In this document: one piece after another, positions 3,223-64,000 of the stretch | Layout: each line of letters opens with the position of its first letter | Position numbering within the stretch: the stretch's first letter is position 1 | Source of the DNA: a phage | Assembly (NCBI GenBank): GCA_020279385.1 | Contig: GCA_020279385.1_4762.1 | Reading direction: 5' to 3' (one strand) | Length of the DNA: 64,000 bases | Notes under the pieces: model-generated | The model's input: only the letters and a program-made list of their open reading frames with translations | Database searches by the model: none | What the model was told of the DNA's origin: nothing | Program-made: the position numbers and the translations under genes

Positions 3223-3879
3223 ATGCAAGTTTCTGAAAAAGGGAAAGACTTTGCTATCTCAAATGTCCTGCGCGCTATTTTCACAACTAAAAGCACGGAG
3301 TTGCTCGTACTTCGTGTTTTTGCTGCCGTCGTGTTGTCTATATTAGCATTTGTCGTTTATAGCAAAAACGAGTTATTTGCGCTTTATAAAGAGACTCGTT
3401 ATGAGACGTATGCTCACGTTCTCCAGATAGAGAAAGACCGCAATTTTGATAATGCAGCACAGGAGCAGTTACAGATAGTTCATGTGTCGGCTGATGCCGA
3501 TTTTTCTGTTGTTTTTAGTTTTCGTCCGAAAAACCTAAACTATTTTGTTGATTTGGTGGCATATGAAGGAAAGCTACCGCATACAATCGATGAAAAAAAT
3601 TTAGGCGGATTCCCTATCAATAAAACGAGTGAAGAATATCGTAGGCATCTTTTAGGTAAATCCTATTTTACCGATAAAGATTTCCAGTATATTCCATCAA
3701 GAGAAAAGAAATTAGAGAGTATCGATATAGGGTTTATGTATTCTTGCCCTATATTCAATCTCGATAATGTCTATTCTGGTAGTATCGCCATTGCATGGAA
3801 GAATAAACCGGATATTGACATTGAGAATTTAGATACTCTTTGCAATCAATCTGCCAGAATCCTCGGAAGGATTAGATAA
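3223..3879 (+). CDS. t: Holin t
   Basis: 218 aa, N-terminal TM segment; conserved T4 holin blocks (LEQLQIVHVS, FRPKNLNYFVD, AYEGKLP, MYSCPIFNLDN, ARILGR). Confidence 0.9.
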   Translation: MQVSEKGKDFAISNVLRAIFTTKSTELLVLRVFAAVVLSILAFVVYSKNELFALYKETRYETYAHVLQIEKDRNFDNAAQEQLQIVHVSADADFSVVFSFRPKNLNYFVDLVAYEGKLPHTIDEKNLGGFPINKTSEEYRRHLLGKSYFTDKDFQYIPSREKKLESIDIGFMYSCPIFNLDNVYSGSIAIAWKNKPDIDIENLDTLCNQSARILGRIR

Positions 3880-5721: not shown

Positions 5722-6489
5722 TTATCTGCACCCGTACTGGTCAACATAGATTTTAGAGTGTCCTTGTTCGCGGACTTCTAAGCGAATGATATCGCTATCC
5801 TGTTCACGCCACACATAATACTTTTTATTTTCTTTCCAGCCGCTAAAAACGATCATTCCGTTGTCATCAACTACTCGTTTTGTGTTTGCCTTATGAACAT
5901 CATTATTGTCGATGTATGTAAAATGGATAATCTGACCATCTTTTACTTTCAGAGTCAATTCACCTGGATTGTATTCTTTATAAAAAGGCTGTTCTTTCGG
6001 CTTAGTGTTTGCTCCGTCGATATTTTTCCATTTAAAGTGAGATTCACATTGCAAGGTAAACTCGCTGGTTTGTGGTTTCTTTTCTTTCTTCGGTTGCTCT
6101 ACCACTTTTTCTTCCTGTTTCGGTTGTTCTTCTTCAACCTTCGCAGAAGTCTCTGAATCGCTTTCTGACGCTGTTTCTTCTTTAGGTAATACATTCATCA
6201 AGTTTTGGATTTGAGCGTTATATACAGCCTCCAGTGGCTGAATCTGCCCGATATTGATCATTGTATCACGAACGGTTTTATTCCAGTTGCGTTGCTCTTG
6301 TTTCAGAGACGGATCAATCTTAACAGCCTTAACATATACTTCATGAAGTTTAGAATCCAGTGCTGAGATTGACTCATTAGCACAAATAAACTTCTCTGAT
6401 TTGGTAGTAGCTTTAGCGCAATCAAAGGACGCAGCATTAGCACCGAAAGCAGTAGCGGAAAGAACGATAGCAGCGATAATGTTTTTCAT
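5722..6489 (-). CDS. Secreted DUF1311/LprI-like domain protein (255 aa) with signal peptide
   Basis: N-terminal signal peptide MKNIIAAIVLSATAFGANA; DUF1311-like pattern FDCAKA...EKFICANE...LDSKL...VY...EQRNW; acidic/Lys-rich linker; C-terminal domain. Confidence 0.7.
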   Translation of the reverse strand: MKNIIAAIVLSATAFGANAASFDCAKATTKSEKFICANESISALDSKLHEVYVKAVKIDPSLKQEQRNWNKTVRDTMINIGQIQPLEAVYNAQIQNLMNVLPKEETASESDSETSAKVEEEQPKQEEKVVEQPKKEKKPQTSEFTLQCESHFKWKNIDGANTKPKEQPFYKEYNPGELTLKVKDGQIIHFTYIDNNDVHKANTKRVVDDNGMIVFSGWKENKKYYVWREQDSDIIRLEVREQGHSKIYVDQYGCR

Positions 6490-59917: not shown

Positions 59918-60316
59918 TTAAGACAGTCGAGTGAGTTTATAAATTGTTTTAAAACATAGAGCTTTGATATCGTCTAAAACGCTCTGTAACGAGCTATCAA
60001 CATCATTATAAATCTCACTAGCCATTTGCGTTAACTCTTGCAAATAGGCAATTTCGCTAATCTCCTTGCGGACGACCAACGTTGGCTGATAACGACCAGT
60101 GATCCCAATATTGGTTTCAGTGAAATCATCAACCAATTCTTGCATTTCAAGATAGAACTCTTCTAGAGCCTTATGTTTTGCATAAGATCCAGGACCAGTT
60201 ACCCCAAAATGCGCAGAATGCATATAAGTAACACTCATCAGACATTCACCGATAAAGCGGTCAACTTTATTAGCTTTCCCCTCTTCGGACGTCTTTCGAA
60301 AATCACTGAATTTCAT
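59918..60316 (-). CDS. Hypothetical protein (132 aa)
   Basis: ORF on early strand. Confidence 0.55.
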   Translation of the reverse strand: MKFSDFRKTSEEGKANKVDRFIGECLMSVTYMHSAHFGVTGPGSYAKHKALEEFYLEMQELVDDFTETNIGITGRYQPTLVVRKEISEIAYLQELTQMASEIYNDVDSSLQSVLDDIKALCFKTIYKLTRLS

Positions 60317-60606
60317 GTTCTCGATTCTCCATATTTATGCAACATAACAAACTGTTGTGCGGCATATTCCCCCATAATAAAACACTGCTTAGAATCCATA
60401 CATTTACTACGAGCATACATCTTCATAATATGGGCATGAAATTTCTGGCTGGTTTCAATGGAAGGAGATATTTTGTTTACATATACTATCATTGCACCGT
60501 CGAAATAATCAGTAAAGTCACCAGTTGGATCATATTGATCAGCACTGACACTTCCGACCGCAGTCAAGCATATTGCCGCTGTTAGAGTTTTACGAATAAA
60601 TGACAT
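60313..60606 (-). CDS. Small secreted protein (97 aa) with signal peptide
   Basis: N-terminal MSFIRKTLTAAICLTAVGSVSA; preceded by a late-type promoter. Confidence 0.6.
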   Translation of the reverse strand: MSFIRKTLTAAICLTAVGSVSADQYDPTGDFTDYFDGAMIVYVNKISPSIETSQKFHAHIMKMYARSKCMDSKQCFIMGEYAAQQFVMLHKYGESRT

Positions 60607-61271: not shown

Positions 61272-61564
61272 TAATTAATCTCCAAAAATCCAACAAGACC
61301 TAAACCGATATAAGTCCAGATACCAATAAAAAAGATGTTAATGCTCATGGCAAGGATAAACCCTTTCAGAGTTTTGGGATACCCGACCCAATATTCCCGA
61401 CCATCTTCTAACCGGATCAACTTATTTCCTTGCGAGTCCATATCAACCACAACATGTTTATTTCGAGATTGCAATAGATATTGTTTTACAATCTCTACAC
61501 CCGCCATAATAACAATAACGAAAATAAAAGTCCACACAACAAGATTAATGATAGTCTCAAGCAT
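61271..61564 (-). CDS. Small membrane protein (97 aa)
   Basis: Two hydrophobic helices; coupled to tk. Confidence 0.55.
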   Translation of the reverse strand: MLETIINLVVWTFIFVIVIMAGVEIVKQYLLQSRNKHVVVDMDSQGNKLIRLEDGREYWVGYPKTLKGFILAMSINIFFIGIWTYIGLGLVGFLEIN

Positions 61565-61799
61565 TTTCTATCACCTCCACCCAATCAGGTGTTTCCTGAA
61601 AGACTCCTTCACCTTCATGATGGTCGCAACCTTTATTGCTGCAATACATCCACCAATCCCACATTCCCCACGGTAAACGCTGCATATCGTCGTTACAGCA
61701 AGTGAAGATGATAGGCCAACCACATCTAACACATCGGCAGTTTTCCTTCATGTGAGCGGTATTAGACTTCTTCATAGATGACTCCAATATAATCGACAT
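61557..61799 (-). CDS. Hypothetical Cys-rich protein (80 aa)
   Basis: ORF on early strand. Confidence 0.5.
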   Translation of the reverse strand: MSIILESSMKKSNTAHMKENCRCVRCGWPIIFTCCNDDMQRLPWGMWDWWMYCSNKGCDHHEGEGVFQETPDWVEVIENA

Positions 61800-62002
61800 T
61801 TACATTTAGGACAATGCGGTTCTTTAATATAATACCCGTCTGTCTTTGGAACACTAACAGGAGCGGTTTTTATATTGTATTCAGTGAAACAACGAAAACA
61901 AGTTACGTTTTCTACAGACTGACGTTTCACCCAATCACCGGAATATAGATCATTTTTATTTGTCATATTCAACCACCACAATGTTAATGTCTGGAGTAGC
62001 AA
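61772..62002 (-). CDS. Hypothetical Cys-rich protein (76 aa)
   Basis: ORF on early strand. Confidence 0.5.
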   Translation of the reverse strand: MLLQTLTLWWLNMTNKNDLYSGDWVKRQSVENVTCFRCFTEYNIKTAPVSVPKTDGYYIKEPHCPKCKCRLYWSHL

Positions 62003-62411
62003 TATTAATGATCTCTTCTACACATTCCCACTCAAGGCCACCGATACCGCAACCGATTTTAGGAATATAGAAAGGCTGTATAGCACCTTCAAAAACATCA
62101 TTGATAGTCTCAAATCCTTTCAGGATAGCACCATATTCAGCATTTGGACCCGGTCGGAATTGGGTATATAGATTCACCCCGCACCAGTTATAACCATTAA
62201 CTTGATGCGTCCAGACACTAAACCCACCCAGCTTTTCTACCTTACCGCGAGAAGTTTGCTTGTCAATCTCTAACGCTTGCGGGAACTCTTTCGCGATCTT
62301 TGCAGCAATACCAGCACCCATAGTATGAAAACAATTACAACCATGAATTAAATGACCGTTTCCTTGTTTAAACAGGGCGATGAGATCGCCCTTTACAGTA
62401 TCAATAATCAT
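61956..62411 (-). CDS. Macro-like domain protein (ADP-ribose binding/processing family, tentative)
   Basis: Motif LIHGCNCFHTMGAGIAAKIAKEFP resembles macro-like (Macro_2-type) domains; 151 aa. Confidence 0.55.
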   Translation of the reverse strand: MIIDTVKGDLIALFKQGNGHLIHGCNCFHTMGAGIAAKIAKEFPQALEIDKQTSRGKVEKLGGFSVWTHQVNGYNWCGVNLYTQFRPGPNAEYGAILKGFETINDVFEGAIQPFYIPKIGCGIGGLEWECVEEIINIATPDINIVVVEYDK

Positions 62412-62426
62412 AATATAAACCTCTCA

Positions 62427-62786
62427 TTAGTCACGGGAAGACAACCCAGCCATAAAACGGCTTAACAGTGTGTCGCGATAAGCAAAGCATAATTGCTTAT
62501 CAGGGGCAGTATCACAAAGGTTGCGTTTTGTTTTAGCAAAGCTGGCAATACTCAGATCCCATGCTCGATTTTTTCGTTTTTCGTCTCGACCTTGTTTGTA
62601 TGCTTCGTCAAGTTCGAGCGCGATAAAATCGCTACACATGTTATCATCATCACAGAAGGTTTTAATGATCTTTTTGTTGATCTCAAATCCTTTGTATTCG
62701 AACTTTGGATAAGGGCGCTCATTACTAGCAAGCGCACCAGCAGAGAACATCATAGCAATCATAGCAATTATTGTCAACTTTTTCAT
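62427..62786 (-). CDS. Secreted small protein (119 aa) with signal peptide
   Basis: N-terminal MKKLTIIAMIAMMFSAGALA; several Cys. Confidence 0.6.
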   Translation of the reverse strand: MKKLTIIAMIAMMFSAGALASNERPYPKFEYKGFEINKKIIKTFCDDDNMCSDFIALELDEAYKQGRDEKRKNRAWDLSIASFAKTKRNLCDTAPDKQLCFAYRDTLLSRFMAGLSSRD

Positions 62787-62793
62787 ATATTCC

Positions 62794-63384
62794 TCAATAG
62801 CGTTTAGTTTTAAGAATGCCTTTACTCTTTAGATGGTTAGCCTTTTTTAGTACGTCATCAGCATAACCTAAACCGGCTTTATAGTTCCACCCAGCATTGT
62901 AAGAAGCTAGCGCGAGTCGGATATTACCGTTTCGAACATCCAGCCAGTATGCTAACTCATCCATCGCGTAGAATGCAGAAACCTCGCGATTCATGATAAA
63001 GTTGATAGTCTGGCGATCACTCATTTTAACACCGCGCTTTGCATTTTTCGCTTTCACCGTTTTAAGGTAATTTTGAAATAATCCATAAGCATGATGATTT
63101 TTCTTTGGTGCTAAGTTTGCACCCGCGCTTGATTCTTGCCATGCGATACCCGCCAGGATGTGACCTAAACCCTTTCCGTTATAGCGAATATTCGGATGGT
63201 ACTTTTTCAACTTACCGCTTTTCTCGAATTGCTCGCCGTATTGATAGGCGAAATGTAAATTATCTAGTTGGTGTGCTGTAAAGTTGTCTATCGGCGCTTT
63301 TTTGATCGGTGCGCTAGTCGATGCGTGTGTAGCACCAACGGCTAGTGACAGACTCAATAATATCGCTTTTAGAACTTTTAACAT
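62794..63384 (-). CDS. Secreted lytic transglycosylase (SLT domain)
   Basis: Signal peptide MLKVLKAILLSLSLAVGATHA; SLT motifs (AWQESS, GLFQ, SYNAG); SD AGGAG. Confidence 0.7.
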   Translation of the reverse strand: MLKVLKAILLSLSLAVGATHASTSAPIKKAPIDNFTAHQLDNLHFAYQYGEQFEKSGKLKKYHPNIRYNGKGLGHILAGIAWQESSAGANLAPKKNHHAYGLFQNYLKTVKAKNAKRGVKMSDRQTINFIMNREVSAFYAMDELAYWLDVRNGNIRLALASYNAGWNYKAGLGYADDVLKKANHLKSKGILKTKRY

Positions 63385-63418
63385 TAATTTCTCCTGTTTG
63401 GCTTAACTTTCTGATTCC

Positions 63419-63447
63419 ATAATATAGCCAGATCACCAGAAAGTCAA
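63419..63447 (-). promoter_or_regulatory. Early sigma70-type promoter upstream of the SLT gene
   Basis: rc TTGACT-17nt-TATTAT. Confidence 0.5.
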
Positions 63448-63470
63448 GCATTATTTTTAACCAATTTCCA

Positions 63471-63893
63471 TTATTGGTCTACCTTCAAAACAACCGCCGA
63501 CATTTTACCCGCCAGTCGTTTTGGATTCTCTATAATCATTCGGCAGCATAGACCGTGATATGGCTTACCCTCTTCGATTAGATCTACTGTCATCCCGATC
63601 CACATGTTACCGTCAGTAATTTCTAATCGATTCGGTCGGTCTTCCATTTTCAGGAAGTCGAAGATCTCCGGCAAACGAGTTTCTATCTTATTGAATAGTT
63701 CCATTGTCTTATGTTCATCAATATGACGATCGGTTAGACGGTCGATCATATGCGGACTAAAGCGAATGAAAATATACTCACCGTAACCATCATTCAAGCA
63801 CTTTTCTTTGATCTGCGCATTGGTTTTGCGCATTTCGGTTTCGAAGAATCTACGCAGCTTACTACGGCGAACATGTACGTTAATTGTTTCCAT
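63471..63893 (-). CDS. regB: Endoribonuclease RegB
   Basis: Strong identity blocks to T4 RegB (RRSKLRRFFE, RLEITDGNMW, CRMIIENPKRL.GK); start at internal ATG. Confidence 0.9.
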   Translation of the reverse strand: METINVHVRRSKLRRFFETEMRKTNAQIKEKCLNDGYGEYIFIRFSPHMIDRLTDRHIDEHKTMELFNKIETRLPEIFDFLKMEDRPNRLEITDGNMWIGMTVDLIEEGKPYHGLCCRMIIENPKRLAGKMSAVVLKVDQ

Positions 63894-64000
63894 TTTATTA
63901 TCCTTTCTTAAACAAATTGCGAATCCAGTATACAAACGGGATTTCTTTAAACTTGAATTTCTCTATAGTTAATTCTTTAGTAGCAAAATGAATACCATAA

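Follow-up and report, generated by a model that had tools for sequence, protein, structure and literature searches.

Introduction

The closest described counterparts of the gene pair considered here are the genes vs.1 and vs of bacteriophage T4. The similarity of vs.1 to the SLT domain was published by Nolan et al. 2006, as corroborating earlier PSI-BLAST matches for the T4 gene, and some database records already call its product a 'transglycosylase SLT domain-containing protein'. In T4 and many relatives, the annotation of the vs product reads 'valyl tRNA synthetase modifier', and a review-type paper restates, with reference to Muller and Marchin 1975 and 1977, that valyl-tRNA ligase is bound by this T4 protein of 115 aa. 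The corresponding pair was analysed here in a 64,000-nucleotide stretch of phage DNA (GenBank assembly GCA_020279385.1, contig GCA_020279385.1_4762.1; hereafter the window), where two adjacent open reading frames (ORFs) of the minus strand encode the predicted proteins Vs.1, of 196 aa, and Vs, of 119 aa. The reading that is favoured, with limited assurance, is that the two genes form a translationally coupled, prereplicative, Sec-exported accessory module for wall remodelling, composed of the glycosidase Vs.1 and its disulfide-bonded partner Vs.

Among the cellular enzymes, the family 1 lytic transglycosylases (Slt70, MltC, MltE/EmtA, MltF, Slt) are the nearest in type. Vs.1 differs from them as a single small domain without lipid anchor, superhelical or LysM domain, with two extra residues between the catalytic-type Glu and the G-L-F-Q motif, and as a phage-encoded protein expressed early in infection. 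The enzymes EtgA (type III secretion), VirB1 and the IpgF-like proteins belong to secretion-system clusters, whereas vs.1 lies outside any such cluster, and we know of no envelope-spanning machine that Vs.1 would serve. For EtgA, a second carboxylate has been described; Vs.1 has no acidic residue from E84 to G101 that could take this part. The T4 protein Spackle (gp61.3), for which a part in superinfection exclusion has been described in the literature, is small, early, Sec-exported and periplasmic, as is predicted of Vs, and offers the most evident functional analogy to it.

The vs.1-vs Locus and Its T4 Counterpart

The identity of the two ORFs was established from the ORF listing and phage annotation. 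Positions 61900-64000 of the window have 99.2% DNA identity to Escherichia phage JSE, where vs.1 and vs are annotated, and 98.6-98.7% to RB49 and Phi1, which carry the same two annotations; these phages belong to the genus Krischvirus of the Straboviridae. The proteins fall into phrog_600 (Vs.1, E = 1e-59; the PHROG label is 'unknown function') and phrog_1256 (Vs, E = 2e-33), while the NCBIfam and PADLOC (anti-phage defence) profile searches gave zero matches for either. By these sequence comparisons, both ORFs are the Krischvirus orthologues of T4 vs.1 and vs. An earlier annotation made from the letters alone (the sequence-only reading) had placed both ORFs exactly, in position and strand, and had presented the pair without gene names, although both were already catalogued in JSE.

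The window Vs.1 has about 47-48% identity to its T-even orthologues such as that of T2 (tblastn), with the same gene order, signal-peptide build and motifs as T4 Vs.1. It is 15 residues longer than the T4 protein, mainly by an extra stretch after the signal peptide. Its gene is preceded by a gap of 86 nt that contains a separate promoter-like site; T4 vs.1, by contrast, starts 7 nt after regB. The window Vs is 29% identical to T4 Vs (phrog_1256, PF26829), with which it has in common the signal peptide, the four cysteines and a C-terminal G-L motif. Nothing sets it apart from the T4 Vs family, and the mismatch described below is thus one between the sequence features of the family and its named function.

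Predicted Activity and Export of Vs.1

Vs.1 exceeds the cut-off of the Pfam family SLT (PF01464) with 25.8 bits against 21.3 (E = 8e-6, residues 76-167), as several of its distant relatives likewise do, and the three motifs named for the 196-aa ORF in the sequence-only reading were all found, namely E84-S85 (ES), G101-L-F-Q104 (GLFQ) and S161-Y-N-A-G165 (SYNAG). A structural prediction, which that reading had proposed as a check, was obtained as an AlphaFold2 (AF2) model with a predicted local distance difference test score (pLDDT) of 84, falling below 50 at residues 1-3 and 18-30, and it has the goose-lysozyme-like alpha-helical fold of the SLT/GH23 type. The conservation, counted over 159 full-length members of the family, is complete for E84 and for S/T85 (159/159 each), and nearly so for Y162 and G165 (158/159 each) and G101 (155/159). 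Such near-absolute conservation of the motifs argues for an active enzyme.

The register of the motifs was taken from hhalign, because hmmsearch of the Vs.1 profile on E. coli Slt70 and EmtA gave negative scores. In the hhalign comparison with both proteins of E. coli MG1655, 'AWQES...YGLFQ' is aligned with 'ARQES...SGLMQ', at a probability of only 14%; with this register, Glu84 falls on Glu505 of the Slt70 precursor, the Glu of RQES, which equals Glu478 of the mature protein, the catalytic acid. As read directly from the sequence, there are zero acidic residues between Glu84 and Gly101, and this stretch is the sole hint as to whether Vs.1 would cleave the MurNAc-GlcNAc bond without hydrolysis, to 1,6-anhydroMurNAc, or hydrolyse it as a lysozyme does. 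Sequence searches of the PDB with the single Vs.1 and with a 22-sequence family profile found no lytic transglycosylase; together with the search for Vs, they returned only two chance matches (E ~0.1-0.6).

The family is large. A profile search against 1.84 billion representative proteins yielded 452 clusters at 50% identity (E <= 1e-3), mostly of 160-200 aa, and members occur in about 2,000 phage records; the ten distant relatives seen in the cluster look-up are all metagenomic proteins without names. A weak vs.1-like SLT domain (E = 9e-6) was also noticed in a 1572-aa ORF running off the start of one locus (L079, 1..4719), which is probably a large virion-associated wall degrader outside the small secreted family.

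The export signals were judged by a home-made heuristic, which asks for a basic n-region, an h-region of ~7-15 residues, small residues at -3/-1 and no lipobox. Both Vs.1 and Vs have the tripartite build of a Sec (signal peptidase I) signal peptide, and neither has a lipobox. Of the 101 non-overlapping window ORFs with 70 aa or more, 3 passed a strict version of the filter, and such rarity makes the signal-like N-termini unlikely by chance; the Vs ORF fails the strict filter solely through an uncharged run of 18 residues, the limit being <18. Under the strict heuristic, 127 of the 172 Vs.1 relatives have a signal-like N-terminus, and most of the remainder look N-terminally truncated, by impression rather than by count. 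The median length of the hydrophobic run in the family is 12 residues (quartiles 10 and 14), and 8/159 members have a run of at least 18; a short run followed by a small-x-small site points to a cleaved signal peptide, not to a membrane anchor of 18-20 residues. In the alignment of 47 Vs sequences, a signal-like N-terminus is present in 24/24 displayed rows, with its sequence not conserved. The signal peptides attributed earlier to both ORFs are thereby found again by the heuristic and kept in the homologues, and export of both proteins by the Sec pathway remains a prediction from these features. That Vs.1 is an SLT/GH23-type enzyme built for export is supported by the features of its sequence taken together. 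Two other placements were considered and rejected: a lipoprotein, since Vs.1 has no cysteine at all, and a virion-borne enzyme, in view of the Sec signal peptide and the early expression.

The same conservation bears on the proposal that Vs.1 is a non-catalytic peptidoglycan binder or decoy, which would, for instance, block the tail lysozyme of superinfecting phages. T4-type phages do use the periplasmic Spackle, as well as Imm, for exclusion, superinfection exclusion was among the functions suggested in the sequence-only reading, and no activity of Vs.1 is reported; however, a Glu with the motifs E-S/T, G-x-F/Y-Q/H and S-Y-N-x-G kept almost without exception in 159 diverged relatives would be unexpected for a pure binder, and this proposal is regarded as quite improbable. 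No evidence supporting the exclusion function was found, and the neighbourhoods of vs.1 in other phages point instead to spanins and lysis.

Vs as a Proposed Exported Partner Protein

The annotation of the 119-aa ORF as valyl-tRNA synthetase modifier, supposedly a cytoplasmic protein, is a conflict that the sequence-only reading had missed. In the alignment of Vs, C45, C51, C91, C100, G66 and G114 are invariant, the cysteines being spaced as C-x5-C and C-x8 to C-x10-C. The AF2 model is confident over residues 51-119 (pLDDT about 85-94) and falls below 50 over residues 1-29. Computation thus shows Vs to have a signal peptide, as well as a four-helix domain that bears the four invariant cysteines. 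A Pfam search of Vs gave no match in a copy of the database without PF26829, which is known here as a precomputed label, and no structural similarity was seen to the inhibitor folds Ivy, PliC/MliC, PliG, Tsi3 and Spackle.

These features bear directly on the alternative in which the annotation is right and the pairing only operonic, so that Vs would be the tau peptide acting on the cytoplasmic valyl-tRNA synthetase (ValRS) of the host, its N-terminus unused or only partly used for export, and Vs.1 would be unrelated to it. The long-standing annotation and the repeated report of ValRS binding speak for it. However, the signal-like N-terminus of Vs is kept in all displayed homologues despite the drift of its sequence and lies outside the predicted fold, and the four invariant cysteines, with their spacing, are more readily understood as disulfide partners in an exported protein than as part of a peptide of the cytoplasm. 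Taken from sequence, the signal peptide and the cysteines argue against a purely cytoplasmic protein. It is tentatively proposed, as a possibility only, that Vs would be an exported, disulfide-bonded periplasmic partner of Vs.1, which it would inhibit or target; the tau-peptide function would then be misassigned or a second, cytoplasmic role.

Coupling, Expression and Fitness

In the window, the ATG of vs starts 7 nt after the stop codon of vs.1. When viral contigs were scanned with the Vs.1 profile, 69 loci were obtained, 38 of which encode a Vs homologue. In every one of these (38/38) it is the next gene, and its start lies between -8 and +7 nt relative to the stop of vs.1; the other 31 loci contain more distant vs.1 relatives without vs. 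The two genes abut or overlap in T4, Salmonella phage CF-SP2, Klebsiella phage Mexia, Acinetobacter phage DP45 and Erwinia phage Cronus, while vs.1 is found without vs in Aeromonas, Slopekvirus, Kuttervirus, Ounavirinae and Vibrio phages. Judged by these junctions, Vs is an optional partner which, where present, is always translationally coupled to Vs.1. The constant junction is a further point against the merely operonic pairing, for which the occurrence of vs.1 without vs in many phages speaks.

The cysteine content of Vs.1 was also seen to vary: the relatives in Kuttervirus, SUSP1, Vibrio and Slopekvirus phages (L009, L010, L011, L012), which have no vs, contain 3-6 cysteines, and the Vs.1 of the vs-bearing window phage and of T4 contains 0. 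With no Vs partner available, the cysteines of these relatives may be joined in disulfides within the protein itself.

The expression and fitness data come from T4. A time-resolved omics study (PMC9697503) recorded early RNA and middle-period protein for vs.1 and vs, both proteins being detected. The early expression stated in the sequence-only reading is in this way confirmed for the T4 orthologues as prereplicative expression. In T4 transposon sequencing in lysogeny broth (LB), insertions were recovered at 46/52 TA sites in vs.1 and at 30/32 in vs, both genes being non-essential, and zero insertions were recovered in the holin gene t (doi 10.1101/2025.11.20.689424). In the competitive LB control of the same study, the reads were 22.6 for vs.1 and 26.6 for vs, with 178.6 for regB, 289.6 for tk.4 and 652 for vs.3, which makes about tenfold fewer insertion reads in the pair than in the neighbouring genes. 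In minimal medium, vs was the most depleted T4 gene (log2 fold change -2.19, adjusted p = 0), the value for vs.1 being -0.87 (p = 0.0055, adjusted 0.155), and in the clinical strain CFE299 the values were -1.20 for vs.1 (adjusted p = 0.015) and -1.04 for vs, not significant (doi 10.1101/2025.11.20.689424). A clean T4 vs deletion plates poorly on minimal medium.

In the module that is favoured here, mature Vs.1 (~19.7 kDa, isoelectric point ~9.9) would be a soluble periplasmic peptidoglycan glycosidase, most probably a lytic transglycosylase with Glu84 as the single acid catalyst, making limited cuts in the sacculus from early infection on. Mature Vs (~11.6 kDa), stabilised by two disulfide bonds and made in a fixed proportion to Vs.1, would work upon the enzyme or together with it, either restraining it or serving as its targeting subunit. 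The module would condition the wall for the later holin/endolysin/spanin step, or for the growth of the infected cell, and would benefit phage fitness while being dispensable for lysis. If Vs is such a partner, the minimal-medium defect of the T4 vs mutants would be an envelope phenotype of unrestrained or mislocalised Vs.1.

A sharper version of this reading makes Vs a dedicated immunity-like inhibitor holding Vs.1 in check until late infection, by analogy with the immunity proteins of type VI secretion systems against GH23-like effectors and with T4 Spackle against the gp5 lysozyme. The stronger minimal-medium defect of the vs insertions than of the vs.1 insertions is what such a model predicts; it is predicted equally by an independent function related to ValRS, and the dedicated inhibitor is considered rather unlikely.

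Several points weigh against the exported module. The similarity of Vs.1 to characterised enzymes is marginal, both in the PDB searches and in the hhalign comparison, and no report of a biochemical activity of any Vs.1 family member was found in the searchable literature. Vs has been assigned a cytoplasmic function, the binding of host valyl-tRNA synthetase. Since vs.1 is found without vs, Vs is not needed for the function of Vs.1. The insertions in vs.1 are possibly polar on vs, which leaves the shared transposon phenotype suggestive only, and the minimal-medium phenotype of vs, including the poor plating of the deletion, agrees with an aminoacylation role under nutrient limitation no less well than with one in the envelope. 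Nevertheless, with the export signals, the cysteines and the junction on the other side, the operonic pairing of unrelated proteins is held to be a possible but doubtful explanation, and the coupled wall-remodelling module is retained.

Relation to the Lysis Genes

The sequence-only reading had noted a holin elsewhere in the window, and the gene t was found there. No homologue of the T4 lysozyme e was found within the window. The annotated endolysin of JSE is a 129-aa Peptidase_M15_4 protein with no signal peptide (L001, 11865..12254(-)), which the JSE map places a few kb past the end of the window; therefore, the known endolysin of this lineage is a peptidase, not a lysozyme of the T4 e type. 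Among the non-structural genes examined, vs.1 encodes the only predicted enzyme cleaving glycan strands. The earlier argument that Vs.1 is unlikely to be the main endolysin holds for its conclusion, the T4 orthologue being non-essential while t takes no insertions, but its premise of lysis by the T4 lysozyme e is not directly transferable to this phage.

In some other phages, members of the vs.1 family stand near genes for spanins. A Cronobacter S13-like contig and a second viral contig each have three genes directly after a vs.1 relative, which encode an Rz-like i-spanin (phrog_739; E = 4e-27 and 2e-23), a lipoprotein resembling an o-spanin, and a polynucleotide kinase; in SUSP1 the spanins are two genes away. 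These spanin-adjoining relatives occur in phages without vs. The recurring neighbourhood links the vs.1 family, at the level of gene order, to the envelope-disruption step of lysis. Of the earlier proposal of peptidoglycan remodelling, the enzyme type and the build for export stand, while the physiological role itself is only inferred.

The spanin neighbourhood could also favour the explanation of Vs.1 as a real or redundant endolysin of the secreted or signal-anchor-release (SAR) kind, exported early and released or activated at holin depolarisation, the more so as a vs.1 relative lies directly upstream of the i-spanin and o-spanin genes in the S13-like contig and in L057. Exported endolysins exist in other phages. 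However, the hydrophobic run of 13 residues in Vs.1 with its T-H-A site before S indicates a cleaved signal peptide, vs.1 lies among early genes, with early RNA of the T4 orthologue, and not in a late lysis cassette, it is non-essential in T4 whereas t takes no insertions, and JSE has its separate M15 peptidase endolysin. Moreover, T4 e mutants fail to lyse despite vs.1. An endolysin role of this kind is accordingly thought highly improbable, and an accessory role of Vs.1 is preferred.

Regulatory Sites, Neighbouring Genes and Other Periplasmic Candidates

The coordinates of the features are given in Table 1. The window shares with JSE and T4 the gene order regB - vs.1 - vs, followed at a short distance by tk.4. 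The gene tk is also nearby, and the T4 orthologue of tk.4 was named AdfM in a 2025 preprint, according to which it shields T4 from the DarTG2 defence system. Between tk and tk.4 there are two small overlapping ORFs, 61557..61799(-) and 61772..62002(-), which match recently defined 'Phage zinc binding domain' families of Pfam (E = 6e-34 and 2e-23, respectively) and have no counterpart at the same position in T4.

Table 1. Positions of the described features (window coordinates, except for the loci designated L, which are numbered on their own)
Feature	Position	Strand	Description
regB	63471..63935	-	Pfam REGB_T4, E = 2e-48; adjoins vs.1 upstream
sigma-70-type promoter-like site	63419..63447	-	TTGACT-17 nt-TATTAT; 10/12 hexamer matches (consensus scan)
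vs.1 ribosome-binding site AGGAG	63391..63395	-	6 nt before the vs.1 ATG
vs.1	62794..63384	-	precursor, 196 aa; predicted exported GH23/SLT-fold peptidoglycan glycosidase, probably a lytic transglycosylase
Vs.1 signal peptide (residues 1-21)	63322..63384	-	MLKVLK, 13-residue hydrophobic run, predicted cleavage between T-H-A and S
Glu84 codon	63133..63135	-	predicted catalytic acid (E-S motif); invariant; from hhalign to Slt70
Coupling junction	62784..62796	-	vs.1 stop TGA 62796..62794 within the vs ribosome-binding site GAGGA 62795..62791; vs ATG 62786..62784
vs	62427..62786	-	precursor, 119 aa; predicted small exported four-helix protein, annotated 'valyl-tRNA synthetase modifier'
Vs signal peptide (residues 1-20)	62727..62786	-	MKK, hydrophobic core, predicted cleavage between A-L-A and S
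tk.4	61956..62411	-	macro-domain gene directly downstream of vs; Pfam Macro, E = 1e-6
rI (antiholin)	60313..60606	-	neighbour gene
Holin t	3262..3876	+	Pfam Phage_holin_T, E = 2e-60; 47.6% identity to T4 T
Spanin-adjoining vs.1 loci	L056 2842..4183; L057 2929..4227		L056 contig 99.5% identical to Cronobacter phage S13; L057, a 166-kb viral contig
SUSP1 locus	L010 2001..4261		rIIB, vs.1 relative, polynucleotide kinase, one ORF, spanins

The promoter-like site of vs.1 sits in the sole sizeable gap, between regB and vs.1, and is preceded by an A-rich stretch; in the record of phage GEC-3S, the same site is annotated as a promoter with its -10 and -35 signals. The promoter-like matches of the region numbered 16 against 13.0 +/- 3.9 in shuffled sequences, that is, with no excess, so that the match alone is weak and its support comes from the position and from the T4 expression data. 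Thus, the early-type promoter claimed in the sequence-only reading is present as a site annotated in a related phage, but does not rise above the shuffled expectation. The best sigma-70-like match of the region was another one, at 62749..62777(-) (TTGACA-17-TATGAT with an upstream TG, 11/12), within the signal-peptide codons of vs; its transcript would miss the vs start, and the site could be a chance match or a promoter for tk.4.

The ribosome-binding site of vs.1 contains GGAG (63391..63394), which is the RegB cleavage motif according to the T4 and GEC-3S record notes, with regB itself immediately upstream. By this arrangement, RegB may shut down the translation of vs.1 and of the coupled vs.

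A third predicted periplasmic protein related to peptidoglycan was noticed at the other end of the window, a 255-aa ORF at 5722..6489(-) with the signal peptide MKNIIAAIVLSATAFGANA ahead of A at the predicted cleavage point and with a Pfam LprI 'lysozyme inhibitor' domain (26 bits against a threshold of 22, E = 1.2e-5). Possible targets of this candidate inhibitor are Vs.1 and the tail lysozyme that incoming phages bring.

Significance for T4-Type Phages

The genes themselves and the transglycosylase prediction, some twenty years old, are already known. In the literature searched, no experimental test of Vs.1 was found, nor any treatment of how vs.1 and vs are coupled or of the signals for export in Vs. 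With the proposed activity, T4 would carry an additional, uncharacterised exported wall-cutting enzyme alongside gpe and gp5. Vs, which has every sequence mark of secretion and a constant junction with vs.1, is hard to square with the textbook role on a cytoplasmic enzyme. The annotation 'valyl-tRNA synthetase modifier' is carried by hundreds of T4-type phage genomes, and the gene assignment in question is fifty years old.

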